DNA of 54,622 bases, the filler included, from Stramenopiles sp. TOSAG23-6 (Eukaryota): the NCBI GenBank assembly GCA_900128565.1. It is 3 parts of 3 records of this genome, joined end to end, with 100 filler letters (N's around TTAATTAATTAA, not from the genome) between each part and the next. Parts side by side here need not be neighbours in the genome. Positions count along the whole stretch, not along the records: positions 18,395 to 36,472 come from LT636067.1; positions 36,573 to 54,622 come from LT636068.1; 1 more part is not named here. One strand, 5' to 3'. The translations under genes were made by a program, and so were the position numbers. Positions 1 to 54,622 of this stretch are shown one piece after another; within the stretch, counting starts at the first letter, position 1, and every line of letters starts with the position of its first letter. A model generated the notes under the pieces. The model was not told the origin of the DNA. It did no database searches and saw only the letters and a program-made list of their open reading frames with translations.

Positions 1-76
1 AAAAAATTTGTTAGGTACAAAATTTCGTATGAAAAATAAATTCGATTTTTTTGTTTAAAAAAAAAATAAAACATGC
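1..76 (-). mobile_element. Introner-family copy, partial (3' end beyond window start), GC-donor variant
   Basis: Minus strand reads GCATGTTTTATTTTTTT...CATACGAAATTTTGTACCTAAC, matching the family except T>C at +2; it interrupts the 77..739 ORF. Confidence 0.85.
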
Positions 77-5505: not shown

Positions 5506-8500
5506 TCATATTTCTGCTAGACCAAAGACATTATCTGGTTTTCTGAGCGATGTCACATGAGCCACAACACATCGCGATAGTGCTGATCGTTTACCATCTG
5601 TATTATAACCACCTTCTAAACATGAAATAAGGCGCCCGTTGCATGCCGCACCAGGTCTCTCTGCTACCTGAAGAACTTGACGAGTAACCCATGCAATATC
5701 ATGTTCTCGCAAGCCCAATTGACCTCCGAGAGGATCCTTTGTGTGTGCATCAAACCCAGCAGAAATGAATATTACTTCAGGATCAAAGTCTAAAAGTGCC
5801 GGAATCAATTGTTTTTCTACAGCCCGACGCCATCCAAGTCTTCCTCGGAGTTCCTTGCTCTCCTCTCCTGATGATCCATCTGGATCGCAGCAATCATCTA
5901 TATCCATTCCAGAATTTTGTTTTGTTGCATTTTGAACTGGGACAGTACTTAGTTTTGTTGCATTTTGAACTGAGCCAAAGCTAGATTTTCTACCCGATTT
6001 TTTACTTCTCGAGGAAGAAGGCGAAATCGCCTTAGAAATAGAACTCCTAAATCCACGTGAATTCCCTACGTTCAATGATGATGGATTATGAAAAAATATT
6101 TAAAAAAAAAAAAACTAAAATTTGTTAGGTACAAAATTTCGTATGAAACAAAAATTAGACAAAAAATTGAAATGAAAACGTACATGGAGACTGTAGTGAT
6201 GACGGTATTAATGTTTGATTTGATTCCAAATTTGACTTCTGTACATCTTTAGGGGGGAGAATTCGAATAGTTACATACGACTGTTTTCGTTCATCTTTCA
6301 CATCGTATGGGAAAAACTCAAACGGTGCATCTGGCTCATTGCACATATGAATAGATGAGAAGAAAGCGTTTTTATCATGTTTGAGGATTTCTGCGGTACC
6401 ATTGCCGAAGTGTACATCAATATCTACAACAGCTACTTTAGTAATTCCCCACCGAATGCGCGAGTGTGTAATACCTAATGCTACATTATTTAGTAAACAA
6501 AATCCATGTGAAGTACACAACTGAGTACATCCATCCATTCCAGCATGGTGGCCTGGGGGGCGTATGCAACAGAAAACATTGTTGCTTTTGCCAGACATTA
6601 CAAGATCAACAGCTTGGCAAACAATCCCTGCAGCTTGTAATGCAGCAATTGGAGACATACCAGATACAAATGTATCGGTCGGATCGTCCAACATTTCTAA
6701 TGCTGCAGCCTCGGCAATCTCCTTCTTTGTTTTTTTCTTATTTTTTTTACTTGTACTACTAGCAAAAGATGTTGAGTCTTCTTCATAGCCTTCACTACTC
6801 GAAATGTTTAAAGAACCATCTGAAGTCAATTCTGTAGAAGATTTCCGAGTACCATCGACGCTATTCAATACTATTTGGTCTATACTTGATTCATCTATAC
6901 TTGTATCATTTTCATCAAGGTTCATCGGATTATTTGAAGTGTCATTGAGATTCTTATTACTCGTATTTATAAATTCAAGATTCCGTTGTGTTTTCAACTT
7001 GCTCAACATAATTAGATTAGATGGATCATTTGCAAACAACCAACACTCAACACCAGGATTCATAATTAAACTTTTGTAGTCTGTGTCACTTGAAGTTTGT
7101 GGAAGAAACTTAAATCGGTGTCGACCATCTACACTGTCGAATTCCATCACCTTTGCAATCTGCCACATCCCCGTAACTGCCTTGGACAAATATTTTTCCG
7201 TTTGGCTATATCTTTTCTTACTTGTTTTCACTCCCGTTGCTATTCCATCAGGCGAAAACTTTATCTCGTTGCTAGGAAGCTTTCGAGACCAATCCCATAG
7301 CCATATATCAACAAATCGGCCTACAAGATTCGATCCAAGCGGAAGCGAATTTGATTTCATTAAAACTCTTGCTTTATCTTTCGTGTCTATAGGATCAGCC
7401 CAAAGTTTGAATACGTTTGTTGACCTCATCACAAATGCTTCGAAACTATCAAGATCTTCTTTTTGTATTTTATCTGTATTTTCAATGCTATTTAAGTTCA
7501 AATCTTTCACAATGTGACCTATGGGGGGCTTAATTAAGATTGAATTGCTCAAGTTCTGATCGGTACTCGGCTTTATATCCACAGAAATTGTATTTGGCGT
7601 TGAAATTGACTCATTTTGTGAACCTTTTGGTGGTAATAACAGAGGTTCCAAGGGAATTGGTTCTGAACTTCGATTGCGACGTGCTATAGATGCAGTGTCG
7701 CGTAAATGTCCTAACCAAATTGGAGAGTGTATTAGTAAGATAGTCAATGGAGATGGTAAGACTAATTTACTTTCCCCTTCTGTAAAATGTAAAAATTCGG
7801 CCTCCTCTGTAATAGTCTCAATGCTACTTGAACGTTTCGGTCTTATTTCTGGCGACGAAGAATATTTTTCATTGTGTNGTGACACTTCGGACTTCAGTTC
7901 TGATGCGCTCAAATTTGAATTTGATCGAAGACGAATATGTCGTGACTCAGAATAAACTGTGTCTGAATTTGATTGAGAACGGGTAAGATGTGACACAGTA
8001 TCAAGTACATCTGAATTTGATCGAGTACGACTTACATTCTCAGGATTTGCGCTTGAACTTGAATAAGAACTAGAGTTTGAACTCGATCGAAGAGATCGAG
8101 TTACTTTAGACGTATCTGTAGTATTGTATCCTCCGCTGTCGCTTATAAGCGTAGGAGGTGGCGTTACATTAACATTGTTAAGTAAATTTTTTGATTTGCT
8201 CTTATACCTATTCGATGCGTATTGATGAACAAATAATTGACCAGTTCGAAGAGTAAATGTTTCAGCTTCTTCAGGAGGGTATGCACTAGAATTAACACCT
8301 CGTGATTTATGCGAAGAAGTATATTGTGGAAGTGGATCCAAATTAAGGATTGCATCCATGCTTTTAAGAACTCGTGCTGGTGTTTCTGGAAATCTATCTG
8401 GCAATCGGTGGCGTAAAGTTCCCGCGTGATATAAAACTGTAGTTGTTCTTAAAGAGTCTCCTGCACGAAGAATACCATCCCGAGAACCTGGATGCGATAA

Positions 8501-14500: not shown

Positions 14501-15516
14501 TGAATTATCTGAATTCTGCTTTTTAGATTTTTGAAGTTTTGACTGTAAATGACCATGATATTCTCGAGGCCCTGCTCGCCAACAGATGCACCCAGACATA
14601 TTTGGTTTATCATAAAGACCAACTGCGAGACGTTTTGAAGGCCCAGCTGAGTTTCCCCTGTAGACATAACTACTTAAAGCTACACGAAGAGTTCCAATAG
14701 CTCGCGGACATGTATTTTCGAAAAATATTTCAAAAAAAAGCGTTAGGTACAAAATTTCGTACGAAAAATAAATTCGAATTTGAAAGAAAATTAAAACATA
14801 CATGCGTCTTCTTTAAGAGCTATTTCCAGAACTTTTCGTACGAGTTCTCTTATGGGTTTCCCACAATTTGTTGGCATACTTCTGACACGATTAAGCATAA
14901 CTAGCCATGTTGGTTTTGAATCTGGCCATTCTAGATTGTGACTTGCACAAAGTTCAGGAAGTTGAAACAAACCTGGACTTGTAAATATGTAACTTTTGTC
15001 TTGATTGTTTTGACTAATAGCAGACTCGTTTTTATCATCAAAAGTACTGCCATTTGATACTACATGCTTAATTTCACCAACATTCTTATTAGATACAATT
15101 TGATTACTTTCAATGCTAAGGCCTTCACACGTTGGAGATGGGTTTGGTAGGGCACTCGCTTCGGTTTTGACTAAACTATCTGGTTGTGAGTTGGACGATG
15201 TATTGACTAAATTATCCGGCATTGAGTTGGAAGATATATTGTTAATAATGTTTTGTTTTTCACCATCTAAACCAGTTGTTTTACTATGAGAATGAGCGTA
15301 AATCGTTTCACCTGTATGAATTGGTACGTCTCCGAAGACTATGTCTTTTCCTTTATGAGTAAATGTTAAATTTAAAGACTTATTTATTTTCAAGATTCGA
15401 CGGATATGAGATAGAATTATTTTGGCATCCAATCCAGGTATCCAAGCCACATTATAAGTACGTGATCGTTTCTCATCCACTAAAAAAATGCGCGTGCAGA
15501 AGTCATCATTTGTCAT
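5506..15516 (-). CDS. ~3271-aa chromatin regulator: GNAT-like acetyltransferase, PHD finger, Cys-rich zinc finger, extended PHD and class II-type histone deacetylase; exons 15516-14802, 14709-6184, 6080-5506
   Basis: GNAT motif A LAIHPKSRHRGFGRLL; PHD YCIC...VGCEGCDGWYHPKC...WRCPKC; ePHD WVHFEC...RCHYCGDLGATLPC...FHYACA; HDAC RPPGHHA, GFCLLNN, DIDVHFGNGT, SAGFDAH, LEGGY. Removing two repeat copies gives one 9816-nt frame. Confidence 0.85.
6081..6183 (-). mobile_element. Introner-family intron (103 nt, GT...AT, flanks AT/AT)
   Basis: Removal gives CCA T|CA TCA TTG and joins the two halves of the HDAC domain; the internal AG would frameshift (34 nt). Confidence 0.85.
12860..12943 (-). repeat. 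Near-perfect 42-bp tandem duplication encoding KSKTLDKNGLETYC twice
   Basis: Two consecutive copies, visible in DNA and protein, directly before the PHD finger. Confidence 0.9.
14710..14801 (-). mobile_element. Introner-family intron (92 nt, GT...AT, flanks AT/AT)
   Basis: Joins ORF 14791..15516 to ORF 6155..14803 as EDA|CPRAIG; no AG anywhere inside. Confidence 0.85.
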
Positions 15517-17119: not shown

Positions 17120-17424
17120 TTGAAAACAATAAAACGGGTGGTTTTTTAATATCTATAAAATCTTAGTGAAAATTAATCGGAATAGGAAACGTGATTTTTT
17201 GTATTTTTGCTTAGGTACGGATTTTCGTACAAAACCAAAAGGGAGGAGAGGAATGAGAGGAGGACGAAAAGAAAACGAAAACGGATCTTTTGAAATATTG
17301 CAACGTTGCGATCATCTTCTTGGAAGTCTCTTCTTCTTTAAAAAAATAGAGTCCCATTAAATTTTTCATCTCTCTTGAAATTATTCACACAGCAAATACT
17401 GTGCACCCACACTCTTAACTAAAT

Positions 17425-18241: not shown

Positions 18242-18294
18242 GTATGTTTTATTTTTTTTTCAAATTCGATTTTTTTTTCGTACGAAATTTTGTA
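18242..18294 (+). mobile_element. Introner-family copy, partial (runs into gap)
   Basis: GAA AT|GTATGTTTTATTTT...CGTACGAAATTTTGTA followed by Ns. Confidence 0.85.
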
Positions 18295-18394: not shown

Positions 18395-18731
18395 GTACAA
18401 AATTTCGTACGAAAAAAAAATAAATTTGAAATTCATAATGAAAACGTACACCNNNNNNNNNNNNNNNNNNNNNNNNNNNNNNNNNNNNNNNNNNNNNNNN
18501 NNNNNNNNNNNNNNNNNNNNNNNNNNNNNNNNNNNNNNNNNNNNNNNNNNNNNNNNNNNNNNNNNNNNNNNNNNNNNNNNNNNNNNNNNNNNNNNNNNNN
18601 NNNNNNNNNNNNNNNNNNNNNNNNNNNNNNNNNNNNNNNNNNNNNNNNNNNNNNNNNNNNNNNNNNNNNNNNNNNNNNNCAAAATTTCGTACGAAAAAAA
18701 AATAAATTTGAAATTCATAATGAAAACGTAC
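18395..18731 (-). mobile_element. Introner-family copy, partial; seen twice across an N gap (18395-18449, 18680-18731), probably one locus
   Basis: GGT|GTACGTTTTCATTATGAATTTCAAATTTA...CGTACGAAATTTTG appears identically twice with the same flank. Confidence 0.75.
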
Positions 18732-19865
18732 ACCTGCAAGGGCAGTGATGAGAAGAACCGTCAGAACTATCACTCCCCAAACTCGCATGTCATTGACACG
18801 ATTTGTTGTAAACGAAAAATATTGGTGATCAGTTTCAACTCCTAAATCGTCCGTCAGTGTCTCAACAAATCCTAGAACGAATAAAGCAGTACCAAAACAA
18901 AGTCCTATAGCAAACAAGATACCAATCGACCCACCGATAGAAGGACCAACGCAGCGAGAAATAAGGTAATAAGGCCCACCACCTTTTACCTGTCCGTTTG
19001 TTGCTATAGCACTCATAGACAATGCGGTTATTAGTGTTATACTGGATGAAAGAAGTACAATGAGTGATGCTCCGATTATTCCAGCCTGGCCAACCATAAA
19101 TCCTGTACGAAGGAACATGTATTGTGAAAAAATATTTTTTGTTTTTTGTTTTTTGTTTTTTGTTAGGTACGAAATTTCGTACGAAAACAAATTAAATTCG
19201 AAATTGAAAAAAAATAAAACGTACATGATGACACCAAAGATACTTAACATGCAAGAAGTGAAAACACCGTCCCAAGTTCCAAATTTTTGACCCATTTTTT
19301 TTTCATTTTGATACTGATCAAGAATTTCAATTGAATCTTCGTCTTCATCTTCGTCCCCAGCATTTAAATTCCCCATTTGTCGACGAATTTTTTGTTTTTG
19401 ATAATGAGCCTCTGTATACTCTTGTTTTTTTGAAACTTCCTCAGCATGATACCCATTTGCATTTGCACTCTCTGTTATCAAAACATCTATATTTTCTTTC
19501 TTACCTGTGATACACGAACCTTCTGTAAAGTTTATGTTTAATATTGAACCATGTCGCATGCCACTGGACGTGTTTACTATAGATCGAAGCGCACAAGCAT
19601 CCTCAGGTTTTGTGGCGTCATAGTCACTCATTAACGGACTAATAGACACTGACGTTTGGGAAATCAAAGTCTGGTGCATTGGTGACTTGGGACGCCGTCT
19701 TTGTGCTTGTGCTTGCTCATTATTTGCGAGAACATTACGAAATTTTTCTTCCGCAACGCTCGAAGCTTCAAGCTCCGAGATAGTAGGCATTCTCATTGGT
19801 TTAGTACTACTACTTTTTCGGTCCTCAACATGAGTCGCAACTTCCGAAGCAACGGATACCTTCAT
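18732..19865 (-). CDS. SLC12 cation-chloride cotransporter (SLC12A8/9-like), N-terminal part; exons 19865-19225, 19116-18732
   Basis: KFGTWDGVFTSCMLSIFGVIM|FLRTGFMVGQAG, SMSAIATNGQVKGGGPYYLISR are SLC12 signatures. Confidence 0.9.
19117..19224 (-). mobile_element. Introner-family intron (108 nt, GT...AT, flanks AT/AT), in-frame and stop-free
   Basis: Removal restores IFGVIMFLR in TM1; contains the perfect palindrome GTACGAAATTTCGTAC at 19167-19182. Confidence 0.9.
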
Positions 19866-21543: not shown

Positions 21544-22518
21544 GGAGAAAATGAATGGAATTTACGTCAGGCAAGTGCTGCTGCGTTGGATTTCTTAGGC
21601 GAGTCATTTCATACGGATCTTTCAAGAATATTGCTTCCACTTCTTGAACCATTACTAACGAATTCCGATTGGAAAGTTCGTGAAAGCGCAATCCTTGCTC
21701 TTGGTGCTGTTGCAACGGGATGCTATGATGGTATATTGCCTCACCTACCTCAACTTTTCCCATTATTTTTAGGTCTTCTGAAGGATCATAAGCCACTCAT
21801 TCGGAGTATCGCGTGTTGGACTCTTTCTCGATTTGTAAATTGGGTCGTTGAAACATCTGAACAGTCGACGACGAATCATGCCGCTTATTTCCGTCCAATG
21901 GTGGAAGGTTTGATGATATGTGTCGTAGATTGTAATAAAAGAGTACAAGAAGCTGCATGCTCATGTATGTTTAATTTTTTTTTTCCGGTAAAAAAAAAAT
22001 CAAATTTATTTTTTTCAAAAAATATTGTACCTAACAAATTTTTTTAGATTTTTTTGAAATATTTTTCCAAAATACATCTATCGCTGAATTTGTCGAAGCT
22101 GCTTGTGAGGATATTTCTCCTTATATTCCCAGTTTGCTTGACTGCTTTACAGTCGCGTTCTCTCGGTATCAGTCAAAAAGTTTACTCATTTTATATGGAA
22201 CGATAACAGCCCTAATGGAAAGTGCCCCAGAAGCTGTTGTTTTACCTGAGAATGCGAGTAAATTACTTCCACCTTTAATTCAAAAATGGGGTGTAACTCA
22301 AGATATGTATGTTTTATTTTTTTTTTTTTTTTAAACGGAAAAAAAAAAAATTCCCAAAAAAAAATTAAAATTTAAAAAAAATTTTTTTTTCGGAGGAAAT
22401 TTTTTCCCTAATCTTTTTTTTTTTTTTTTTTTTTGAAATAAGCTCTTCAATATATTGTCTGCTCTTTTGATCTAATTTGTGGTATGTCAGATGGATTGAA
22501 ATCTGGAATTGAAAGCAT
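20314..22518 (+). CDS. TNPO1: Transportin-1 (karyopherin beta-2), partial; exons 20314-21964, 22078-22306 and a further exon at about 22441-22518
   Basis: MTWQPNE, AGLVLKN, VALEATEFW, acidic loop then WNLRQASAAALD, WKVRESAILALGAVA, KRVQEAACS|SIAEFVEAA, FSRYQSKSLLILY, IVCSFDLICGMSDGL. Confidence 0.92.
21370..21540 (+). repeat. Coding (His-Gly/His-Ser)n array followed by a (GAT)n poly-Asp tract
   Basis: CATGGA/CATAGT hexamers at 21370-21483, then GAT repeats to 21540. Confidence 0.95.
21965..22077 (+). mobile_element. Introner-family intron (113 nt, GT...AT, flanks AT/AT)
   Basis: Removal gives EAACS-SIAEFVEAA, colinear with transportin EAACSAFATLEEEA; the internal TTTTAG would add 10 non-homologous residues. 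Confidence 0.85.
22307..22440 (+). mobile_element. Introner-family copy, degraded or low-quality homopolymer sequence
   Basis: GAT AT|GTATGTTTTATTTT start, CCCTAATC branch-like motif, TTTGAAATA; transportin sequence appears to be missing across it. Confidence 0.6.
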
Positions 22519-22565
22519 GTATGTTTTATTTTTTTTCAAATTCGAATTTATTTTTTTTTTCGTAC
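22519..22565 (+). mobile_element. Introner-family copy, truncated at its CGTAC core
   Basis: AGC AT|GTATGTTTTATTTTTTTTCAAATTCGAATTTA...CGTAC, then an abrupt switch to minus-strand coding sequence. Confidence 0.8.
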
Positions 22566-25500
22566 TTGCCTTCAAAGTAACCTTTTTCGTCTCTATTACC
22601 CCATTTGACTAATTCGCGCAATACATACTCAAGTCGCTTATCTTGATCTTTAATTGCCGCATATTCAGAATCAGCAGCATGCTGCTGAAATTTGTAGTCT
22701 ATATTCTGATTTATATGATCTTTGATAATATACGCTATATACACTGCAAACGTTAGAGCAATCAAATTTAATTCTAATTCTAAATGATTTCCATCATCTA
22801 AAGCAGATAAACCGACTTTACCATATACTCCTGGTTGGGATAGTTCCATAGCAAAATAAAGGTAGGAACACCTTATCAGCGCACCAATGGTCCCAGAAAC
22901 AACGGGTGCATTTCGAGCAAGATACGGTCGGCAAACTATGAGGTATAATGCCCAAATTCCTTCCAGTCCCATGTACCCTTTTATAAATGTCAATGTCCAG
23001 TCGGGCATATCTTCTACCGTTTCATCTCTGAGAGCACCAACGAAAACAGCAAATGCAATGGCTTTGAGATAATGGAAAACCCGTGTACACCACATTCCAT
23101 ATTTTTTACGGAATAAGCCAAACAGTACATCAAAATGATACATACTTCCAATATGTCCCTCCAATTCCATATATCGACCAGATTTTCCTTGGGGTCGAAA
23201 AACTTTCTGAAATTTGACACACCAACCACTCACTACTGTAACAAATGTCATAAAAATACCAAGTACAAGAAACCCTAAAAAAAATGCCAAAGTTGCAAGA
23301 GCCACGAAATAATTTAGACCCCATGAGTCGCTTTCCTTATCTCCATTAAAAAAAACACGAGATGCGCCATAGCACATGCCTGGTGCACACCACATCGATA
23401 CCACAAACTCCCAACGAGGAAAGCTTGCCTTTCGTCTCATATCTCGTAACCAGTGAAGTCTTTGTGTGTACGCGTATGGCTCATTTTTTTTCTGCCATTC
23501 TAAAATACGAACAAAGTCTTTAAATGTGTCCCCACGATATGCCTTGTGAAAAATATTTCAAAACCCAAATTATTAGGTACAAAATTTTGTCCGAAAAAAA
23601 AATAAATTTGAAATTCAATATGAAAACGTACATTCCCATTCTTCTTTTAGTTTCGTTTTGCCAGTCATTGCTGCAAGGCCACCACTCATTTCTTTGATAG
23701 GTGTTGCTGCGTGTAGTTGGCGTGATAAATATACCCAATAACTTATTCTTGCTACCGCAAAAAGTAAGATAATATTAGCACCTACAAAAATTGGCTCGGC
23801 TTGTTTGATATCTATTTCTCCGCCTGTCATTGTCTTTATATATGATTCCCACCCTTCCCGTTCAAATGCAACATCGCCAATTGAGAGAATTTGCCATTCT
23901 AAACAAGACATTAAAGTATGATAAATCTCTAAGTAACGATCAAAGTAAGGAAGTTTCCCAACAAGTACCATAAATTGTAATGTCCAAAAGACCTCAACAG
24001 AGTCACCAGTAGGCCGTGCTGCTGGATTCGCCAGCATAGCATAGTAACAAGAACGCCCTAGTGAGTGAAGAACTTTTACGCTTAGAACTAAAGCAATAAT
24101 TCTTAGAATATCTTGCGACATCCATTCGGGGTCGTCATCCGTAATTTGAATGCCAATAAAACCCCCGAATGCAACATATGATATTTCTGGTTCAAAATAC
24201 ACAGCACCACTTGGTGTAACACCAGTCATTGCTGCTAGAGGATCATGCCCAGTATTATTGGTCCCAGGAGTATTCAGACATGTTTCCATTGTTGGATCCA
24301 AGTGATTAAAGTCAAGTAATTTTGATGACGTTTTTGATGTATGGAAATGTAAGTCATCACTTGTAGCAACATGGGATACATAACAATGAATTGTTTTATG
24401 GTATTGCATATCTTGAAGTACACTTAAAAGTATCATTTGTGGGTTTGCCCAATTAGTTTCATTAAATAGTAATGTGTGTTTGAATGATCCCATTTCATCT
24501 GCTAGCCAAGATTTTCTAACATATAATGTTTTGTCTTCATTTAATCGAAGGTAACCTTCGCAATTATGTCCTTCCACAGTAACATTTACAGGTGCTGAAG
24601 GCTTTGAATTGAGTCTAAGGGAATACTGAATACCTTGACTACCCTCTGAAATACGCAATTCACAACCACGCTTTGCAATAGGAAACGAACGGACACCAAC
24701 TCGATTTAAGCGCGGTAAATTTTTCCATTGAAGAGAAAGATCCAAACGACGACGTTGTCGCTCATTGACATTTCCAATTCCGATGTTTTCCTCTGTTTTC
24801 ACAATGTAGTTTACTTTGGTTTCGTGCCCTGTTGAAAGAATAGATCTCATACCTACAGCAAGAGAGTGTATTAATCGCCATGCATTTTGAAGGTATGATG
24901 AATGTTTTGCATACGGCGATATAGGTTTTGATGGTATCCAATCAATGACATTGTTTACAATAGTCTCATGAATAACATTTGATCCATACTTGATACAATT
25001 GATACAAGTATCAAAAAGTGTGAAATTGCCATAGGACTTGTAGGGATCAAAAAGTCGACGACGTTTTTGTTTCACTTTTTCTTCAATTGGATTATAATCG
25101 GTGACATTTCCAACTTTCCAATCTTCAATGGGCTTGCCCGGAGTATCACGAGGTCTTAGTAGAGCTCTTGCATTTGACCGATCCAGAGCGTTTATTTTTT
25201 CTTCATCACTAACATCAAAAATATTACTATTGATTGCATCATCGTAATGTTTCAATTCATCATTTACACTTCCAACTCCAAAATCAAATATGAATGCGTC
25301 TCTGTCAGTAATATTCATGGAAATTGCATCAACATCGACAGTAAAAGGAGAGTAAAAATAATCACTACTTCTTGTTTCATGATGAATGACTGCAATATGA
25401 TCATTTTCAAACATATTATCATCATCAGGCGAAACATTAATCAGTTGCTGTACATACCAGTCATCTTTTGTAAAATCGACACGTAATTCGCGAACAGCTG

Positions 25501-28500
25501 TTCTTTTATCTTGACCTTGATACAACTTGATATCGCCAGTTGTTGAACATATAACTGTAACATTTTTCTGAGGAGGCCTCTTCAAAACAATACCATATTT
25601 TTGAATTGTTTCGCCTTCTTTCATCCATAGAGGATACCCTTCAAGAATAATTACAGGATTGCTATATTTTTCCATATTCCACTTATTAATTACAGTACGC
25701 CCATCGTAATTTTTATCTTGACTTTTCACTGACAAGAGCAGTGTTGATACTAAAAGTCTTCTTCCAATAGAATACTGGTCTGCTGCATCTTTCATATTCT
25801 TTCTCGCTGTTGGAAATGAATGTATTGGTTGATCATCATCATTTACAAGTTCCACTTTTGAATTCAAGAGTTTTCTTCGAGCAAGCTGTTTCCATGTATA
25901 GAAGTCACCATTAGGTTTCTTTTGGTCGCGATCTTCATATTTTGTTAGCCAATGCCAAGGCACACTAGGATCAGTTGTTTTACCATCAACGCCACTTAGA
26001 TTTGGCATGTAACAACAATGAGCGTAATCAAATTTATCATATGGTGCAGTGGCATTCACTGGAGACATTGGTGGATTCCAGGCATATGTAGCAGATGTCC
26101 CACCCGATTTACCTCGGTAAATGTATTTTGGTAAAATATTTCAAAACAAAATCGTTAGGTACAATTTTTCGTACGAAAAAGAAATTCGATTTTTTTGTTA
26201 AAAAAAAAAAAAACATACATGTCATCTGCTGTACCTTTCCATCCTTGGGGACCAGTAAGTAAGATATTTGCTGTTTCCATGGCACGTTGCACATGATACT
26301 CGCCAGGCTCACCAGTCCTATCAATATCTGGATCATCAGGTTTGTAATTTGGATTTGTTATTGGGCCAGATAAATAGAAAGCATATCCAAGCTCCCATGG
26401 TTTCTCGATCGACCACGTACGTGTTGTACTAACTGTGATAGTCTGAACTTTATCCCAAGTCAGAGGCGTCCATTCAACTTTGCTAGGATTGACAATAATC
26501 CCATCTACATTTCCAGCAACAGCTTCGATGTCTAATGTGACGTTTTCTGTTGGTGTAGACGATAAAAATACTGTGAAAGTCTGCTCAACTTCTCTTGGGG
26601 CAGTGAAATCCACTGTGCGGTGACTGGAAAGAATCAAGGAAAGATCATCGTCGCTAATATTTATTGTAGCATCTTGTGCTGACATATGTGTATTACACTT
26701 TGCACAATTATTATAAGCTGTATCCAAACTAGCAACATTATGCTTGACGTTTCCAACTACAGTAAAACCTTCATCGATCTTGTCACTAATAACGGTGATA
26801 TGAATTACTCTTGAATTATTCCAGTCTGATGGCGAAAAAAGTACAGAGAGTGCTCCATTACATACTGCTAATCCTGAAAAATTGCCATCGGGCTTTGCAC
26901 ACCCCGGGTGAGGAGACATTTTTGTTCCTGCCACTTCAGTGTAAACACATGAGCCAGCATTTTCACATTTTTCTTTGTCTCCAGCAGTGCTTTCGCCAAT
27001 ATTTGTTGTTTTATCCTTTGTGGAACAGTCAAATACGTTGGATTGTTTACAAGTTGGCGGTGCGTAATCTTGTGCTTCACCTTTTGGCACCTCCTTAGTA
27101 AATAAACAAGTCCCAGTTTTACCCGCAGCAAGGCATATGTAATGTGAAAAATATTGTTCTGTAGTAAAAATTATCGTTAGGTTCAAAATTTACAAAGAAA
27201 AAAAAGTTTAGGTGAAATTAATGATAAAACCGTACATGGATTCCCCTTCATTTTTTAAAAGAGTTTCAAGTGTAATAAGTTTGCATGGGTTATGACAAGT
27301 TTCGATAGTACGACCATCAGGAATTGGTGTCTGTACTAAAAATTGCATGGCATCCCAGGTAAGAGTGATGGTAGTATCAAAGAAGGGTTCTGAATTCATA
27401 GATAATGTATAACTCCCTGTAGGAGTTAGTTGACAGAATCCTTCCACAGCACAGCGATAATCTTTTCCATAGAATCCACCATCGACTTCATCAAGGGTAA
27501 GAATTCTGGAATTAGGACTATTTGCTTCACCGATTTTATATTGCTGTGTGTACTGATTACTTAGTACAATGACACCTGCAATATCATTCTCTACAATATC
27601 AACCATAACACTAGTATGCATTCTTTTATGTGCATTTCGAGAAATTGGTCGAATTCTGTGTTGAATCATTGCAAAGTGGTCACCATGCTCGTAAACTTTA
27701 TCATCATATGCTGCAACTGTTATATTGACTGGTCGGGTATAATTATACTTGTTCCATATTATCACCTTGGGGTTGACAACAAGTTGTTTTCTACCAGATT
27801 TGCATTCTTTAACTGCATCAACCAGATCAGATTTTACGCGACAGTCTGTAGATGCATTCCCATTGCTTTCATACCCAAACATTTTTTCAGCAGTGATGTC
27901 GACAATAATCGGAATTATGGGTGGTGTAGACGTCAATTTAAGAATATAACTGTCTGAAAAACCACCTTCGGCAACTTTAGTGCCAGTTCCAGTTTCCTCG
28001 GCATGAATACGAAATTCCATCGCTGTAAGATTAATATTTCGTGACGCCTCAACTTTCACGTCATCTACTGCCCATGATACACCTGACGTTCCAGGTAGTT
28101 CCAAATTCCGAAATCTGAATCGTGTTTTTGTTGTTTTCATGTCGTCGTTGATATGTTTTGTAATAAGAGATGAACCTAAGCAGGTCGAAGATGATCCTGG
28201 TGTTAGTTCATAAGTATCAATTATGTGTACACCACCAATATATCCAAATGATGGACACTTCCCGTATACTCCGAGAATTTCTACTTCATTTAAATGATAT
28301 TTATATTTAAGGCGCTTGTTCATTTTTATTCTTACCTTCTTTCCTGTTGTACGTTCAAACGTATGGTCATGAATTGTGTAAAGAAGGTTATTCTTTGTAG
28401 GGTCAGGGTCTTTGTATGAAATAGACACATAACTAGTAGATACCACCGTTCCTTTGCTGACGTCATTCGATGGTGTAGACCAAACTACGATAGATTCATT

Positions 28501-31500
28501 TTGAGCAATAAATTCTGTCAAATAGAACAAGCGAACACGAGAAAGACAAAAAGTATCCAATAAAGGTACATCGATTTCAACGAATAAGTTCTCATCCAGA
28601 AGCTCCTTACTAAACCAACCTTGTGTTATGTATGTCCCATCAAAAAGAGTACCTATTATATCATTAGTTGATCCTGGATTTGAGCCAATGGGTTGCGTTG
28701 TTACAGATTTCGCTATTTTTGCCCAATTATTAGATTCGGGTCTCTTATATATTGCCATATGAGTTTCGCTACCGCAACCAAACCCATTTTCAAGACAATC
28801 TGTACCTCCATCCTCGGCTTTACATTTCTTTGATTGTAACGCGACTCCATTTTGAGCAAATTTATTAGACGGTAGCATTTCTTCAGCACAATAACACCAC
28901 ATTAGACCTGGGTATTCTACATCAAAAGGATCATCGGGAGTCTTGACAACTTTTCGTAATCCAAAATAGCGCCGAGGGCATATAGCAGAACACGCTTTAA
29001 GTGAGAACTCCTGTAATAAAAACATTTCTGTGTAATGATAGAGAACCGCAGCGGTTATTTCTGGTTTCGATGCATCAGAGACATCACCAGCTACATAGCA
29101 ATTTTCTCCACCTGTAATAATTGCAGATGGCGAGTCCACACTATCCTTCACAACTTCACGTGTGTATACAGCATTGTATGCCGGATGAGGACTACAGGAT
29201 TCCCAAATATTCCCGAGACACTCAACATTGCATTTGTTGTTAAGCGCATGTGTTGAATCATGTGCTAAATGATCCTGGCAGTAACATTGTTGGAAATCTC
29301 CGCGATTATTTCCTGTGGTATTGTCAATCACTCCACGAAGTGAAAATAAACGGGTATCACATAGAGCAGCACATTTACCCGGCGATGCAGGTGCAACAAC
29401 ACCCTCAACAATATCTTCGGGCTTCCCTAATTCTTTAACCGAAGTACAATTATTTGGAGCATCAGTTGCAGTACACCCATTTCCTGAACACGAACCAAGA
29501 TAAAGAGTTTTAGTGGTCACAAAAGTCCCGAATTGTTTTTTGACATATGCCATTGTGTTTTTACCTGATTTTCGAACAAAGTCTGATTCGCAACCTTCAC
29601 ACGTTGTAAACTCGATAATGCCACAGGCAAAAGGGCTAGCTTGCCATATATGCTGTCCTTCAATAAGTTCGTGTCCGGTCAAGCCAGTTAAAAGTATAGC
29701 ATTTGAATTTGCCAAAGTACTCATAATCTGTCCTCTTTGCCCATTATCAAGTTTCTTCCTATTTTCGTATCCATCTTTTAGATGATACCAGCAACCTGCA
29801 TAGCTCCACTCATCTACAAGAGCTTCAACGCGTATTTTCCGTCCAGGTGAATTACTAACTTTGTTGCCGTATAATTTATATGAAATATTTCCACCTCCTG
29901 CAATGTCAAAAGGATTTGTAATGAGAGTGCCTGAATTTTGATACCACATTGCATAATTTTCGTCGGCACATTGCCAGCAATCGCCTGTACATTTACCAGT
30001 ATTAGTGACCCATTTGCATGAAACATTGCCATCACATACACTTTTAGTAAAATCTGTGCATACAGCACATTCAGTTTCGCATGTTTTCACAGTGTTACCG
30101 CTCTTCACGAAACTTGAACACTCGTTTGAGCGAATGCCATTTGTATTTTGATCCCAACTCCCAATTGCAAAGTCAAATATATTTCTCATTAGTAGCCTAG
30201 ACTGATTATTCCAAAATGGATCCGGACTACTCGGTAAAAACTTAACATTTGCCAATGCGGGCCATTGCCAACCAGTGCGAGTAGGAAGAGTCAAAGTAAT
30301 AGCCTGTGGAGTAGTAGAAGATTTACCCCATTGAAATTCAAGTGGCTGGAAATCAAATGCAAATAGTGAAAATGCCTGGTTCTCATCCGAGATCTTTTCA
30401 CTTTTTTCTGCATCACTGAATATAAATGCATTAAATAAAGTAGAAGATGCACCACTTGCCAAAGATGGGTTTACGACCCCTGTACACTGAATGTACCCAA
30501 AGTCTCCTGAACCAATTTTATCCCAATTAGAACCAGCTTTACAAACTATTATAGATCCAATACCACTACTCATGTCAGCACTATATGTGCAAGTACCCGA
30601 ATCACCACCAATTGCAACTCCGTTGCTCCATTTATCATTCAGCGAACTGATTCTTAGAAGCCCGCATGTATTTTGGAAAAATATTTCAAAAAAAATTCGT
30701 TAGGTACAACATTTCGTATGAAAAATAAATTCGAAATTGAAAAAAAAAATAAAACATACATGTCATGACATTTGAATTTCCGGTAAAAAGAGGCAACGTT
30801 GTTCTAATTGTAATTTGTTCTGTAGCCACTCCACCATTTGCAGTTTTCCCACGAGTTTTAAACCGGAACCCATACACTTGTCCTGTCACACCTGCTTTGC
30901 GTGATCCTAACGGCGGAATAAGTTGAAATTTTGACATCACATCTTTTGGTCGACTACCGGGTAAAATAAGAGACTTTGAATAACCAAATACATCTGGGGA
31001 TGCCAAGCACACTTCCGGATTTATTTTTTTACCACGACATGGGATTGAACCAGCACTTGGGCCAGTTTCAAACTCACAGCATTGGGCACTTTTACATCGT
31101 TCCGTTGAAGAATGTGATACTGAAATGTCACAGAACTCCTTGTAACATGCATCGAGGTAAGTTGTTCCCCCAATAAGACATGTAGTTAAGTTATCGATAT
31201 CAACTTTTACATTTACGGGGGCAGCAGGTACCCCATTAGAATTAATTGCAATGTTAAACTTTCTAGCGCCATCTTCTTCAACAGTGGTAAACTTAGCTTG
31301 CCATTCTGAAGGCTCATCTTTTAGTGATACAGCTACAGTACTGAAATCAGATATTTGCCCGTTATCTACAACAGCAATTTTTGTAAAGCGTACCAAATTA
31401 GCAAAGCTTTGGAGAGGCAAGCCCCAAGCCCAGTCTTTCCTTGGAGCATCTAGAATGTGGGCTTTCAAAGGAATACTTTGTACTAGATTCTCTACGAATT

Positions 31501-35309: not shown

Positions 35310-36420
35310 ATGACGGGAGTTAATGTTGGCGACGCATCACCTAATAAACGAATGCGCACATCATACGATGGCAACTTGACACAAGGAGCATCGTCGAAAT
35401 TTTCTACCTCTAGGAGTGGAGGAACAACCCACACCAGCACCGGCTCTTCAGCACAATCTGAGATTGTGCCAAAACGTCCTGTATCTCGTTCTGAACAAGC
35501 TAAGCTTGACTTGGCAAGTGGACGTTTATTTTTTAAAGTAATTTCAAATGATAACACTGATGAGAATATGATTAATTTGGTGATATTGAAAAATATATTT
35601 TCAAAACAGTTACCAAAAATGCCACCGCAATATATTATCCGGCTAGTGTTTGATCACAGACACCAATCTATAGTTCTTTTCAAGAAATACGATAATGGAG
35701 AACCTGCAAAAGTTGTTGGAGGGATATGTTTTCGAGTGTATGAAGAGCAAAAATTTGCAGAAATCGCTTTTTGCGCAATTACCGCCTCGGAACAAGTTCA
35801 AGGGTATGGTACACTCGTTATGAATCAACTGAAAGAACACGTGAAAGTTCGTGGTTTGACCAATTTCCTTACGTATGCTGATAATTATGCCATTGGATAT
35901 TTTAAGAAGCAAGGGTTTTCAAAAAAATTGTCAATGGAAAAGTCTCGTTGGCAAGGATTCATAAAAGATTATGATGGGGGTACCTTAATGGAGTGTTTCA
36001 TACACCCGCGTATAGACTATAACAACATTGCTACTATGATTGCCCAGCAACGAAAATTTGTTTGTGATCGTATACGTGAAATATCTGGCTCAAATGTTGT
36101 ATATCGTGGATTAGGCCGTTCTTTTTATTCAAACAAAAATTGTGATTTATGTATGTTTTATTTTTTTTTTAACAAAAAAATCGAATTTATTTTTCGTACG
36201 AAATGTTGTACCTAACAAATTTAAGTTTTTTTTTTTTCAAATATTTTTCCAAAATACATATGATATACCCGGTGTAAGAGAATCTGGTTGGAGCCGTCCT
36301 CAAGTGATTGCTTTTCGTGATAAAATTAGACTTGCCACTAGTTTGCGTGGTCAATTACGTTCCATTACTAAAGATTTAAAGGAACAGAAGTGTATATGGC
36401 CATTTTTAGAACCTGTTGAT
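35310..36420 (+). CDS. GCN5: Histone acetyltransferase GCN5, partial; exons 35310-36150, 36260-36420
   Basis: LKNIFSKQLPKMP..YI.RLVFD, EIAFCAITASEQVQGYGT, FLTYADNYAIGYFKKQGF, IKDYDGGTLMEC, then DIPGV and the bromodomain start WPFLEPVD. Confidence 0.97.
36151..36259 (+). mobile_element. Introner-family intron (109 nt, GT...AT, flanks AT/AT)
   Basis: Removal gives CDL|YDIPGVRESGW; the internal AAG would frameshift (34 nt). Confidence 0.88.
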
Positions 36421-36472
36421 GTATGTTTTATTTTTTTTTTTACAAAAAAATCGAATTTATTTTTCGTACGAA
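36421..36472 (+). mobile_element. Introner-family copy, partial (runs into gap)
   Basis: GAT|GTATGTTTTA...TCGAATTTATTTTTCGTACGAA, nearly identical to the 36151 copy. Confidence 0.85.
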
Positions 36473-36572
36473 NNNNNNNNNNNNNNNNNNNNNNNNNNNN
36501 NNNNNNNNNNNNNNNNTTAATTAATTAANNNNNNNNNNNNNNNNNNNNNNNNNNNNNNNNNNNNNNNNNNNN
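36473..36572. other. Artificial contig-joining linker (Ns flanking TTAATTAATTAA)
   Basis: Same all-frame stop linker at 36517-36528. Confidence 0.9.
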
Positions 36573-36609
36573 CTAACGATTTTTTTTCAAATATTTTTCC
36601 AAAATACAT
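36573..36609 (+). mobile_element. Introner-family copy, 3' part only
   Basis: CTAACGATTTTTTTTCAAATATTTTTCCAAAATAC-AT directly after the gap. Confidence 0.8.
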
Positions 36610-37761
36610 GGTGTATCGAAAGTTACTGAGGAAAATGAGGCATTTGTTTGTTCACATGATTTATCTGAGAACAAAAAAGTCACTTCACTTTGGTCTGACT
36701 TTTGGAACAAGGTACATGTATTTTTACATCATTCATTTCAATTTTAATTTTTTTTATACCAAATTTTGTACCTAACAAATTTCAAATTTTTAAAATATGT
36801 TTTCACAATACACGTGAGAAATGTTTTACTCGTGGGCTCAGTTTTGCAAATATTACAACAATTTCTTGGTATAAATACGGTAATGTACTATGGGGCTACA
36901 ATTACTGCAGAAGCTATAGGCACAAATAATATTTTGGATCAACCAAATTCTTCAGATGTAAAAAAATTAGAAAGCGCTGTTCTATACAGTACGTTTTCAT
37001 TATGANTTNCGANTTNATTTTTTTTTCGTACGAAATTTTGTACCTAACAAATTTCGAATTAATTTTTTTTTACAATATATGTGCACTCTTGGCTTTTGGA
37101 AATTTTATTTTCTCTGGCGTAGGAATTTTTCTAGTTGAACGTTCAGGTAGACGTTATTTAACTTTGAGTAGCATTTTAGGAGTGACAGGAACTCTTTTAT
37201 TTCTCGGATTTGCATTTTCTTTTAATTTTGCCTATCCTTACAAAATTGCTTTTTTGGGATTGTATGTAGCTTTCTTTGCTTATGGAATGGGGCCCATGCC
37301 GTGGACAATCAATTCGGAGATTTTTCCTCTTGACATTCGAGGCAAGTGTAATGCATTTACAACTGGTGTGTACGTTTTATATGAATTTCTAATTTAATTT
37401 TTTTTTGTACGAAATTTCGTACCTAACAAATTAAAAAAAATTTTGAAATATTTTTTCACAATACGTGAACTGGGGTGCGAATTTAATTATATCCTTCACG
37501 TTTCTTTCTCTCGGATTTTCTGTAGCATTTTTTGTATATGCAGGATGTGGAATTTTAGGCTTTATATATTTGTATAGGTATTTACCTGAAACGAAAGGCA
37601 TCGAGTTACATGAAATATCTTTGCTCTTTGGGAAAAAAAGAGAAAAAAGTAGAAGTGATGAAATTGAAAGTGTATCAGACGCAACTGAATCTATACCAGT
37701 TGCAGAGGCTGTACCAATATCGAACGAAAGAGTGAAAACTACTAGACGTTCTTCTGTATAA
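36610..37761 (+). CDS. MFS sugar porter (myo-inositol transporter-like), C-terminal half; exons 36610-36717, 36814-36988, 37081-37369, 37467-37761
   Basis: LQILQQFLGINTVMYYGATI, LVERSGRR, GMGPMPWTINSEIFPLDIRG, VNWGAN, LPETKG. Confidence 0.92.
36718..36813 (+). mobile_element. Introner-family intron (96 nt, GT...AC, flanks AT/AC)
   Basis: Contains an in-frame stop and no AG; removal gives FWNKVH|VRNVLLVG. Confidence 0.8.
36989..37080 (+). mobile_element. Introner-family intron (92 nt, GT...AT, flanks CA/AT)
   Basis: Removal gives AVLYS-ALLAFGNF; a 2-nt-upstream register would create TAA. Confidence 0.8.
37370..37466 (+). mobile_element. Introner-family intron (97 nt, GT...GT, flanks GT/GT)
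   Basis: Removal restores TTGV|NWGAN; perfect palindrome at 37407-37422; no AG inside. Confidence 0.88.
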
Positions 37762-37859
37762 AGTCTGTCAGGTACATGTATTTTCAATTATACAGTGTTT
37801 TTTTTTCTATAAATTTAAAATTAAAACCCCAGATATAAGTTTTTTATTTATTCCAATCA

Positions 37860-38788: not shown

Positions 38789-38879
38789 ATGTATTTTGGA
38801 AAAATATTTCAAAAAAAAACCCGTTAGATACAAAATTTCGTACGAAAAAAAATCGAAATTGAAAAAAAATAAAACATAC
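38789..38879 (-). mobile_element. Introner-family copy joining ABCD (upstream) and BT1 (downstream) exons
   Basis: Full consensus copy with AT/AT flanks, but the upstream exon ends in phase 2 and the downstream exon needs phase 1. Confidence 0.8.
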
Positions 38880-39969
38880 ATATCACGTTCCACAACTCCT
38901 CCATTGTATGCCGCAATAGCCTCCGCGTGGTTTTGGAATCTTCCATGAGCTGCATATGTACCATGAAAAAATATTTTTTTTTTTGGTTAAAAATTTTTGT
39001 TAGGTACGGAATTGTCTACGAAAATAAAATAAATTTGAAATTCATAATAAAAACGTATAATATTTCCCACGTCGATCTGCCATGCCTCGCCACATCTTCG
39101 ACCAATTTGGTGAAAGAGAAAATGAAAGACGAAACGCAATATAAAAGTAAAGTAACGGTGATAAAGCATATGGCAAAGATGTTATTGTACTGAGCTTGTA
39201 AGTATTGTGAAACAATATTTTTTTTGGTTACAAAAAATCGTTAGGTACAAAATTCGGTATGAAAAACAATTAGGGGTAAAAAACAATTAAATGTTTACAC
39301 CGTACAGGTAAACCAAATACCAGATGTAATCGCAGCTGAAAATTTTTCTACTTCTTCAGATAAAGATTTAGAAAATCGACGGGTGTCCCTGGTAATACGT
39401 TCTTCAACATCACTGATTTTAGATTTATTGAGGTGGGAAAGTTTGTAATATGCCTGACCACTAAAATATTCTCGATGTAGATGCCTTGTCAATTTCGAAC
39501 GCCATATTAAAGTCAGCCTTTCCTTCAAGAATCGGTGAAATGCAAAAATTATCGATGAAATGAGACTCAGTATTGTTGTTTCTATAATTGTTCGCTTAAA
39601 TATTTTGAGGTCACGGTGAAAAGTAGCACTTAGAAGACGTGTCTTGATGTATACCATGCGGTTTTGATGCCAAGTGCGGATAATACTTACTGCAAATATC
39701 GCCAGTAATTCAAGTCTTCCAGAGCGAGAATCACACAAGTGACTTGACCTTGCCTTGCTGTAAAATGGCCATAACATACGGAATATTTTATACATTGGTG
39801 TCCAACCCATTTTCTTATTTTTAGGTGTTTTAGACACTTTTGAAGAGGCAGAAAATAGATTAGTAAAATGATGACGCTTATAATAGTACACTGCGAGAGC
39901 AAAAAGTGCCGTTGGTAAAACAAAGTGATGCTTTCTGTAACTAACCCGCATTTTACTTGATGCATACAT
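38880..39969 (-). CDS. Peroxisomal ABCD-type ABC transporter, N-terminal membrane domain, partial; exons 39969-39306, 39199-39059, 38955-38880
   Basis: WRSKLTRHLHREYF...YYKL...DVEERITRD, FT|YKL, and the EAA-like motif RGKY|YAAHGRFQNHAEAIAAYNG. Confidence 0.88.
38956..39058 (-). mobile_element. Introner-family intron (103 nt) with AT instead of GT at its 5' end (AT...AT, flanks TT/AT)
   Basis: Starts ATACGTTTTTATTATGAATTTC; removal restores gap-free alignment to the ABCD EAA region. Confidence 0.8.
39200..39305 (-). mobile_element. Introner-family intron (106 nt, GT...TT, flanks CT/TT)
   Basis: Removal gives GIWFT|YKLST in frame; CCTAAC and the TTTCACAATAC end are present. Confidence 0.82.
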
Positions 39970-53187: not shown

Positions 53188-54559
53188 TTACNAATTCACC
53201 CCCTTTTTTTCACGCATCCATGATGGAACATACCCTTCCGTAATTTTATTAGTTTTATCCAAAGTTTCTTGTGGCGTTGTTGTATTCTGCTGATATTTGT
53301 TCATTTTTTGTTGTTTTTTAATAAATTGTTGTTTTTCATATTCATCAAGTCTTCGTTCATTTTCCATTTCTTTTCGCTGTAGCATTTGTTCCTTTCCTTG
53401 ACGACTTGAAGGATCCCACGGGCGATACTCAATTTGTTTTTGATTCTGTTGTTTTTGTTGTTTTTGTTGGTTTTGAAGGTCTGGGGGTATTGGCTGGTGC
53501 AACTGTTGTGGAATTGGCTGACTTGGTGGAATTCTATTGTGTTGCTGAACTTGGTGAATCTTATTATTTTGCTTTATACCAAAAAACGATTTATTCGTTT
53601 TTTTAGATTTTGTACCAAACTTATAATTCACATGTGGTTTCCTTCTTCGCCAACCAGGTTGACGGTCATAAATTTGACCAACACCAAATCCAGGAAATAA
53701 ATCAACTGTTTTTTGTTGGTGTTTTTTGGGAACATTATTCTTTTCTTCTAAATAAGTACCTTCCAAGTCATTATCATTTATATCATTAGGATCTACTCGT
53801 ACAATGCCAGCTGCTGCTTCAACCGTATCTTGATTTTGGCTGACAAAATCAATAGCAGAGGATCGGTCTACAAATGTTCTTGGAATATCGCCTCGTTCTT
53901 TTGCTTGTTTTGTAAGAGCAGGAATAGTATAAATAGTAGTTGTTTCACCATCATCCATTTTATACATTTGCATTGCATCTTTACGTACAAAAAACGTAGG
54001 ATTGAACTCTGCGTCAAGTGCAACTAATTGCTTTTTCATTTGTGAATTTCTGCCTCGTATTGCACCATAATTCTTATTTTTCAGATGAGGAATTCCAACT
54101 CTACCGCTCATATCTGACATCTTATCCATGATTGTAATATCAGTATGATGTATTGCTAGAATTTCGAATAAATATGCATCACTATGACAAATCAATGCAT
54201 CAGGGTAAATATCATCGATATCATCTACACCATTGCCGAAAGGGTTTCCCATTTTTAATGTAAGCTTTCGTGACATTAGAAATGCGAGCGTCGTAAAGAG
54301 TGTTGCAAACACAGGGACTATCTGAAAAGATGAACCTGGAACATAACAATGAAACGCATAACTGAATGGACACAATAAAATTGCCAAATCTATTAGAAAT
54401 AGATGAAAAATACCAAAACCATCTGGCTGTATTTGATAAGTCCAATATACTGTGTAGAATATTTTTGTTGTAAAAAAAAATTATGAGGTGCAAAAATTAC
54501 CATGAAAAAAAACAATTTGAAATTAATGATGAAAACATACATGGTCGTGTAGTTCATGC
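53188..54559 (-). CDS. Bestrophin-like membrane protein, C-terminal part; exons 54559-54541 (19 nt), 54444-53188
   Basis: Two hydrophobic helices followed by KMGNPFGNGVDDID (bestrophin NPFG..DD motif) and a long Q-rich tail. Confidence 0.6.
54445..54540 (-). mobile_element. Introner-family intron (96 nt, GT...AT, flanks AT/AT), diverged copy
   Basis: GTATGTTTTCATCATTAATTTC start, branch motif decayed to CCTCAT; removal gives HELHDH|WTYQIQP. Confidence 0.7.
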
Positions 54560-54622
54560 ATGTATTTTGGAAAAATATTTCAAAAAAACCCGTTAGGTAC
54601 AAAATTTCGTACGAAAAAAAAA
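54560..54622 (-). mobile_element. Introner-family copy, 3' part (5' end beyond window end)
   Basis: CGTACGAAATTTTGTACCTAACGGG...AAATATTTTTCCAAAATAC-AT. Confidence 0.85.

Follow-up and report, generated by a model that had tools for sequence, protein, structure and literature searches.

The DNA analyzed here, hereafter the window, is a 54,622-nucleotide stretch from the genome assembly of the marine protist Stramenopiles sp. TOSAG23-6 (GCA_900128565.1), and it carries a mobile-looking family of introns, with copies of roughly 100 bases that interrupt the reading frames of unrelated genes. The window is gene-dense eukaryotic DNA with a G+C content of approximately 36%, and gene bodies occupy approximately 93% of it, by our sum of open reading frame (ORF) spans. 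The genes recognized with Pfam encode a GCN5-type acetyltransferase, a sugar/inositol transporter, BT1 and ABCD transporters, an AP2-plus-ankyrin protein, an LCCL/lectin giant protein, a histone deacetylase, a transportin, and ARMET and Band-7 proteins; the best named relatives of the transportin are from oomycetes, with approximately 41% identity. The window is a patchwork of contigs, with linkers of the form N44-TTAATTAATTAA-N44 at 18295-18394 and 36473-36572 and an N run at 18453-18679. A first-pass annotation of the sequence had flagged 36151-37466 as a range with transposon-like ends. The element copies in this range are real, but the range is not a single continuous one, because the linker at 36473-36572 lies within it; the flagged range thus joins two contigs, each of which breaks inside an element copy.

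A search of the window with an nhmmer profile, built from 13 clear copies, yielded 17 apparently complete copies and eight pieces cut by contig or window ends (Table 1). Two of the eight pieces are the same sequence (52/52 bases), which leaves seven distinct pieces, and two of the complete copies are assembly composites, which leaves 15 sound copies. The sound copies and cut pieces occupy at least 10 genes of the window. One additional copy, flanked by AT on both sides, is present on metagenome contig L001. In what follows, counts out of 16 refer to the 15 sound copies together with the L001 copy, and counts out of 24 pieces refer to the 15 sound copies, the two composites and the seven distinct cut pieces. 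The core of the element, which starts with GTA in 15/16 copies and ends with TAC in 12/16, is 90-111 nt long and has no coding capacity, and in this respect it has the small size and non-coding nature of miniature inverted-repeat transposable elements (MITEs).

The copies share a common descent. Their similarity extends over the whole 90-110 nt unit, including the parts without a known signal, and two subfamilies can be distinguished: type A has GTATG, a poly-T 5' region and the 3' end ...CCAAAATAC, and type B has GTACG, CATTATGAATTTC and the 3' end ...CACAATAC. The internal type of the 5' part is linked to the type of the 3' end (5/2/0/8; Fisher P = 0.007). Identities are 74-91% between best full-length partners and 97-98% between the contig-end pieces and other copies. 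The copies share with introners the occurrence of many similar introns at unrelated positions in unrelated genes: in addition to the genes of the window, a profile of the peptide produced by reading through the element returned 31 database proteins, all 31 of which contain it and for which at least 17 Pfam families are listed, and one further read-through protein from a representative library brings the number to 32 database proteins from unrelated genes. By label, 26 of the 31 are EukProt entries beginning with GSMAST32, four are from ENA contigs and one is from GOS. The view that the copies are a non-autonomous repeat family sitting in genes as introns, which had been proposed from the sequence beforehand, thus holds, with one line of descent and linked subfamilies.

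This evidence bears directly on the possibility that nothing has moved at all, namely that unrelated introns have converged on the same splice signals and that the AT flanks are an exon/intron consensus. Conservation within the element is indeed highest at the donor, in the CTAAC block and at the 3' end, and the C-A-T that precedes the donor and also closes the intron resembles the Y-A-Y pattern described for introns of Fritillaria in excerpts of PMC13326754. However, convergence on signals does not account for the similarity in signal-free regions, for the linkage of 5' and 3' variants, or for contigs that break inside copies and end in pieces nearly identical to other copies. Convergence without mobility is close to refuted, and we consider it highly improbable.

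The unit that must be removed to restore the genes can be defined exactly. Removal of the core plus two nucleotides merges the interrupted frames into frames of 3273, 4056, 637 and 299 codons, and both sides remain open only for lengths equal to core + 2 modulo 3. After such a removal, no gap is left in comparison with homologues at 21965, 36989 and 37370, and at 36151, downstream of a Pfam GNAT match, the junction reads ...NKNCDL/YDIPGVRESGW. When the two nucleotides are taken from the 3' side, the removed unit is GT...AT, which begins with GT in 15/16 copies, has a final T in 15/16 and has Y-A-Y as its last three bases in 14/16. When they are taken from the 5' side, the unit is AT...AC; AT is kept in 12/16 copies and AC in 12/16, and TAA is created at 36989 and 39058. 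Both the seamless removal of the core with one dinucleotide and the failure of the second register in two copies had been claimed earlier, and both are borne out. At the 36989 junction, the GT...AT register yields Ser and the register shifted by one base yields Cys, where the homologue column has Ala or Ser; the residue casts what we regard as a weak vote for GT...AT. Judged from these sequence features, the best-fitting register is most likely GT...AT, with a non-AG end that reads ...C-A-T in most copies.

The signals in the copies are consistent with this register. Each copy combines a donor GTAYGT (GTAYGTTTT), a branch-like CTAAC within the best-kept block GTACCTAAC, and a T-rich tract. CTAAC is present in 14/16 copies, and for the 14 copies with a correct match of the motif, its distance from the end is 33-46 nt; the distance for c39305 was set aside as a wrongly matched motif. 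No AG follows CTAAC in 9/15 copies, and use of the AG that c23631 and c54540 have 4-5 nt ahead of their ends would disrupt the frame. All 24 of the 24 pieces share the orientation of the ORF that they interrupt (P = 1.2e-7). These features together suggest that the copies would be spliced from RNA, and the exact unit and the sense-only orientation are established independently of that suggestion.

The consensus of U12-type introns comprises a donor RTATCCTT and a branch site within about 10-26 nt of the 3' end. If the copies were AT-AC introns, of either the U12 or the U2 type, the removed unit would be AT plus the core (ATGTAY...TAC), and this unit would leave the same mRNA as GT...AT in 10/15 window copies; the bracketed unit of most copies can be written as AT...AC, as in known AT-AC introns, and the CCTAAC block loosely resembles the U12 branch site consensus. 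Against this stand the TAA created in c36989 and c39058, the poorer conservation of AT and AC (12/16 each) than of GT and the final T (15/16 each), and the signals themselves: the donor is GTAYGT rather than RTATCCTT, and the branch-like block lies at the distance given above. We therefore rejected an assignment to the U12 type, as the donor GTAYGTTTT and the position of CTAAC fall outside that consensus and the register fails in two copies, and we consider AT-AC introns in general very unlikely.

Removal might instead occur at the DNA level, as with the internal eliminated sequences of ciliates, with the elements cut from the DNA of an expressed nucleus. Short elements with short inverted ends, a 2-bp repeat and precise removal would fit such a process, but the process would need neither the agreement of 24/24 pieces with the gene strand nor the donor, branch and T-tract signals that the copies possess. 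Moreover, filled sites are present in an independent seawater DNA run, whose contigs span borders between exon and element at 37064-37398, 37446-37857 and 39076-39265 and show 0-1 differences; filled sites at the borders of three copies thus exist outside the source assembly. DNA-level excision is the least probable of the explanations that we consider.

Several searches relevant to splicing gave null results. When three RNA runs and one DNA run were aligned to 37017-41166, no clean joint across copies was seen among the listed joints, which were cross-matches between copies. Read depths over the copies were very high in this alignment, a measure of neither copy number nor expression. The 95-residue exon 37083-37367, used as a protein query for longer proteins, gave 37 matches, of which the best have 59-61% identity and none is near-identical, and hence no cDNA-like (complementary DNA) sequence across 36989 was recovered in this way. 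RNA folding of six copies was no better than that of shuffles (z from -0.98 to +0.13), and a search of the window with Rfam found no small nuclear RNA or other family at threshold.

The question of how the elements arrived turns on the dinucleotides that flank the cores. The flank pairs of the 15 sound copies are AT/AT in ten cases, GT/GT in one, and AT/AC, CA/AT, TT/AT and CT/TT in the others, exactly as first tallied, with 11 pairs identical. Over the 16 copies, identical pairs number 12, of which 11 are AT/AT. The dinucleotide AT makes up 0.093 of the window, and it stands on the 5' side in 12/16 copies (binomial P = 5e-10) and on the 3' side in 13/16 (P = 2e-11). Beyond the dinucleotide, C is preferred at -3 (11/18) and G at +3 (8/18), such that the undisturbed site would read CATG, a palindrome. 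A 4-bp duplication of CATG was rejected, with identical 4-mers in only 4/18 copies as scored by eye. All five flank variants of the window belong to the older subfamily B, a distribution that would be expected if AT/AT had decayed but that is not significant (P = 0.24); the GT/GT copy, c37370, is close to the consensus of its own subfamily.

Typical MITEs have terminal inverted repeats that are usually 10 nt or more in length. The inverted termini GTA(T)...(A)TAC described in the first-pass annotation do exist, but the inverted match is 4 nt (GTAT/ATAC) or 3 nt (GTAC/ATAC) and overlaps a standard GTAYGT donor; MITE-type terminal inverted repeats are thus not a feature of this family. The match extends to 6 nt only if AT is counted, and to 7 with C...G in some copies. 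Because AT is self-complementary, AT...AT can equally well be read as a duplication of 2 bp, as the outermost part of inverted ends (ATGTAT...ATACAT) or as a fixed insertion site. An analogous AG...AG configuration was called 'ambiguous' except where one position or more shows a match within loci that is lacking between them, according to excerpts of Gozashti et al. 2022 (PMC9860276).

Such within-locus matching is rare here. The GT/GT pair had been put forward as co-variation expected of a target-site duplication (TSD), and the pair is indeed identical; however, it is the only one of the five variant pairs of the window that co-varies. The 5' side varies in four copies and the 3' side in three, for which the probability that two or more copies are shared is 0.14, and the chance that at least 1 of 16 copies has one position altered identically in both flanks is 0.15. 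The read-through proteins provide further flanks, which were decoded from junction residues, partly by eye and with junctions at the first Met left out; because predicted coding sequences (CDSs) need not be colinear with the genomic sequence, and the end frames of three decoded cases are unfit for simple read-through, the following counts should be read with that caution. Among 14 elements with both ends at least partly readable, nine are compatible with AT on both sides, the pairs of P0129 and P0134 are undecidable, and three are unmatched variants (P0137, G?/A?; P0140, A[T/C]/A[A/G]; P0127, TG/?T). Co-variation is thus found in one of the eight decidable non-AT pairs, five from the window and three from database proteins, and the part of the earlier claim that took GT/GT as the mark of a duplication is weakened by a chance level of approximately 0.14. 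The decoded 5' dinucleotide is AT in 10/15 junctions, the others being TG, CT or TT, GC, AC and GG, and the decoded first 3' base is A in 22/23; this asymmetry between the two sides is consistent with the AT being part of the element. On balance, we place the interpretation of the flanking AT as a TSD at a little under even odds.

Under the account that we favor, the family would have entered genes as DNA, by cut-and-paste, at the short palindromic site (C)AT(G), with the mobilizing enzyme encoded elsewhere in the genome. A staggered cut would duplicate AT, the second AT together with the last C of the element would become the 3' end of the intron, antisense insertions within coding sequence would be lost, and the copies would now be removed as core + 2. 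We hold this account, of which splicing, DNA-level insertion and duplication of AT are the conjectural parts, to fall just short of probable. A degenerate antisense fragment at 17206-17240, which lies between two genes and is the only piece outside any reading frame, counts in favor of a DNA-level origin; approximately 3.5 intergenic copies would be expected where this one fragment is seen, a comparison that is too weak to separate spread as DNA from spread as RNA (our Poisson estimate, approximately 0.14).

Known transposons offer precedents for such an enzyme. Excerpts of the literature state that ISL2EU elements 'generate 2-bp TSD (typically AT)' (PMC4122938), that Spy, the sister group of ISL2EU, inserts at AAA^TTT without duplication (PMC4122938), and that Harbinger relatives produce duplications of 0, 2 or 3 bp (PMC12730594). 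The habits of ISL2EU and Spy give both duplicating and duplication-free insertion a precedent within one superfamily (PHIS). The AT that stands on both sides in 11/16 copies would fit a 2-bp duplication of the ISL2EU kind and a site preference alike, and the flank of the present family is C-AT-G rather than AAATTT. A Pfam scan of 55 ORFs (16 + 39), from the 128 ORFs of at least 75 codons in the window, found no transposase domain and no THAP or YqaJ gene, in agreement with the initial remark that the window shows no transposase. A more specific proposal is tentative: the family, spread through the genes of a marine heterotrophic protist, would be derived from a transposon, its acceptor would be a 2-bp AT duplication made by an ISL2EU-like enzyme, the GT-donor spliceosome would routinely accept ...CAT as an end, and the family would be the first GT-AT introner family.

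The main rival is the same mobile intron family inserted without duplication, either as GTA...TACAT after a pre-existing AT or as TGTA...TACA placed bluntly into A^T, the alternative already raised in the first-pass annotation. The route could be a Spy-like DNA enzyme, or reverse splicing at a CAT/G-like transcript site followed by copying into DNA. We see this rival as a substantial possibility that is nevertheless short of probable. Every AT/AT copy fits it equally well, in 7/8 decidable variant pairs a single side has changed or the two sides have changed in different ways, and the decoded first base is A in 22/23 cases on the 3' side against 20/26 on the 5' side (21/22 against 18/24, P = 0.10, before the last protein was added). 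It is also favored by 5' flanks that differ at two bases (TG, GC, GG) in 3/15 decoded junctions and by the sense-only orientation (24/24), and its routes have precedents in Spy (PMC4122938) and in the reverse splicing proposed for fungal introners (PMC9860276), as excerpted. Conversely, two matching changes would have to be assumed for the GT/GT copy, the flank consensus departs from AAA^TTT, the antisense fragment between two genes is not expected from an RNA route, and selection would produce a sense-only orientation as well in a window that is approximately 93% gene body.

Several of the observations above thus weigh against cut-and-paste insertion with duplication: the short inverted ends over a normal donor, the ambiguity of AT...AT, the rarity of co-variation, the unmatched decoded variants and the 5'/3' asymmetry, and the lack of a transposase domain in the scanned ORFs. 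To these we add that no intact copy lies outside a gene in the window, and that no empty site was seen, the independent seawater DNA run showing filled sites only. In public contigs, the core pattern was found at one locus in metagenome contigs, at none in genome contigs and at none in viral contigs. A pattern of the 3' end was found in no viral contig and in three bacterial metagenome-assembled genomes; these three match the pattern alone, and we dismissed them as chance. A Helitron, with 5' TC, 3' CTRR, a subterminal hairpin and insertion between A and T, was likewise rejected, as the ends in the A^T register would be TG...CA and there is no stable hairpin near the 3' end.

To our knowledge, nearly all known introners are GT-AG, and mass use of non-AG acceptors has been described only in Fritillaria, Amoebophrya and euglenids. 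We found no paper on a GT-AT introner family in a literature search judged by title and abstract, with the supplementary tables of surveys outside the search. A normal donor combined with an AT end would indicate that the acceptor rule can relax on its own, and if AT is a duplication, the cutting pattern of a transposase would have dictated a new splice signal. Should the GT-AT reading be true, these genes would provide a natural system for the study of 3' splice site choice without AG.

Three described systems are the closest to the present family. IE1 of Micromonas pusilla and the introners of Chrysochromulina are likewise multi-copy, similar, short introns without coding capacity in unrelated genes, and there, too, the element brings the donor and the duplicated target would give the acceptor (excerpts of PMC11282704 and PMC9860276); their duplications are 3-9 bp with an AG acceptor, whereas here the repeat is 2 bp and nearly always AT, and the acceptor would be AT. 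In the tunicate Fritillaria borealis, introns have 3' ends of AC or AT, and Y-A-Y both precedes the 5' splice site and makes up the final three bases of the intron (excerpts of PMC13326754), a feature also found here, where Y-A-Y (mostly CAT) precedes the donor in 11/16 copies and closes the removed unit in 14/16. These introns have been suggested to derive from transposons that had inverted ends and produced duplications (PMC11282704), and diverged U2AF paralogues are reported to bind the odd 3' ends (PMC13326754), both in excerpted text. The main classes of Fritillaria start with AG (AG/AC, AG/AT) and have the exonic repeat TAC, unlike the GTAYGT start of the present family (GT in 15/16) in a protist host. 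The introners of Amoebophrya (Syndiniales) resemble it as non-canonical repeated introns with direct repeats over their borders, inverted ends and no internal transposase, and differ in having inverted repeats of 8-20 nt that form hairpins and variable direct repeats of 3-5 nt, with no dinucleotide rule (PMC7789003). Here, in comparison, the inverted ends are 3-6 nt, the six copies folded showed no such structure beyond that of shuffles, and the ends are nearly uniform.

Table 1. Copies and fragments of the element, and the contig linker within the flagged range. Positions count along the window; flanks are given as 5'/3' dinucleotides.
Feature	Position	Strand	Flanks	Remarks
5' part of copy, cut by window start	6..76	-		5' end ...GC AT GTTTTA
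c6183	6081..6183	-	AT/AT	Inside histone deacetylase domain; core end TCC, but last three removed bases CAT
c14801	14710..14801	-	AT/AT	
Degenerate central fragment	17206..17240	-		GTACGAAAATCCGTACCTAAG, then CAAAAATAC; between two plus-strand genes; E = 1.4e-4
5' half-copy, cut by linker	18242..18294	+	AT (5')	
5' half-copy, cut by N run	18680..18731	-	GT (5')	18395-18449 repeats the same sequence
c19224	19117..19224	-	AT/AT	
c21965	21965..22077	+	AT/AT	Transportin gene; gapless against four homologues after removal
c22307, composite	22307..22455	+		5' part of one transportin intron fused to 3' part of a later one
5' half-copy	22519..22565	+		Stops at central CGTAC; then 3' end of minus-strand 4056-codon gene
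c23631	23539..23631	-	AT/AT	Core end GGC; AG 4 nt before end, frame-breaking if used
c26218	26121..26218	-	AT/AT	
c27235	27137..27235	-	AT/AT	Diverged
c30759	30666..30759	-	AT/AT	
c36151	36151..36259	+	AT/AT	Type A; GCN5-like acetyltransferase gene; core 36151-36257 plus AT
5' half-copy at contig end	36421..36472	+	AT (5')	51/52 bases identical to c36151
Contig linker N44-TTAATTAATTAA-N44	36473..36572	no strand		Inside flagged range
3' tail of copy, start of next contig	36573..36609	+	AT (3')	
c36718	36718..36813	+	AT/AC	Sugar/inositol transporter gene; same protein in all three registers
c36989	36989..37080	+	CA/AT	Core end TAT; dinucleotide-plus-core register gives TAA
c37370	37370..37466	+	GT/GT	Core 37370-37464; sole co-varying pair; perfect 16-nt palindrome GTACGAAATTTCGTAC
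c38879, composite	38789..38879	-		5' side after ABCD exon, 3' side before BT1 exon; invalid flank pair
c39058	38956..39058	-	TT/AT	ABCD-type transporter gene; first base A, not G; dinucleotide-plus-core register gives TAA
c39305	39200..39305	-	CT/TT	ABCD-type gene
c54540	54445..54540	-	AT/AT	Diverged; core end TAT; AG 5 nt before end, frame-breaking
3' part of copy, cut by window end	54560..54622	-	AT (3')	

Assemblies break, and twice mis-join, within copies of the element. In the composite c38879, the upstream exon at 38882-38953 matches the ABCD membrane domain (profile positions 199-220, E = 0.014), and the downstream sequence continues as a BT1 transporter from profile position 131 in a different frame. 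The composite c22307 joins ...LIQKWGVTQD to ...VCSFDLICGMSDGLKSGIES, between which four homologues have approximately 60-70 residues; it is over-long, with an odd A/T-rich middle, and two neighboring introns seem to have been collapsed into one. The join at 22565/22566, where a half-copy gives way to another gene, is probably chimeric as well, and chimera formation at the repeat, during assembly or amplification, seems to underlie all three joins. When read on the minus strand, the half-copy at 22519-22566 starts with GTACG and ends with ...ATAC-AT, and thereby mimics a mini-intron of 49 bases; the ORF is no longer once it is removed.

The introns escape gene finders, and the protein sets of such organisms consequently carry false insertions and truncations. 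Among proteins P0115-P0144, the 26 predicted CDSs with EukProt labels read through the element and contain false insertions such as ...FFSYEILYLTNFF...; the variant 5' end ...C-AT-GTTTTA of the copy at 6-76, which either lacks GTAT or has a GC donor, seemingly also occurs in database protein P0138 (CCHVLFFF...). No canonical GT-AG introns were noticed in the window, in which no systematic search for them was made.

Some further features of the element and its surroundings were observed. The center of the element (37397-37430 and equivalents) contains two overlapping palindromes, TTTCGTACGAAA and GTACGAAATTTCGTAC, the latter of which is perfect in c37370, c19224 and the L001 copy; this block can also be read as two tandem 12-mers, and GTAC recurs at the 5' end, in the center and ahead of CTAAC. 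At 54541-54559, just 19 exon bases separate two element copies, which represents either a micro-exon or an assembly problem. On L001, telomere-like CCCTAA / TTAGGG repeats occur at 640-720 (minus-strand listing), a few hundred bases from the element copy. Within the transportin, a run of His-Gly/His-Ser codons (HGHSHG...) at 21345-21518 is followed by an acidic run, and the loop of the homologues at this place is acidic. Finally, two blocks of 12-base repeats at 4894-5287, in the ORF 4143-5390, encode an Arg-Gly-rich sequence.

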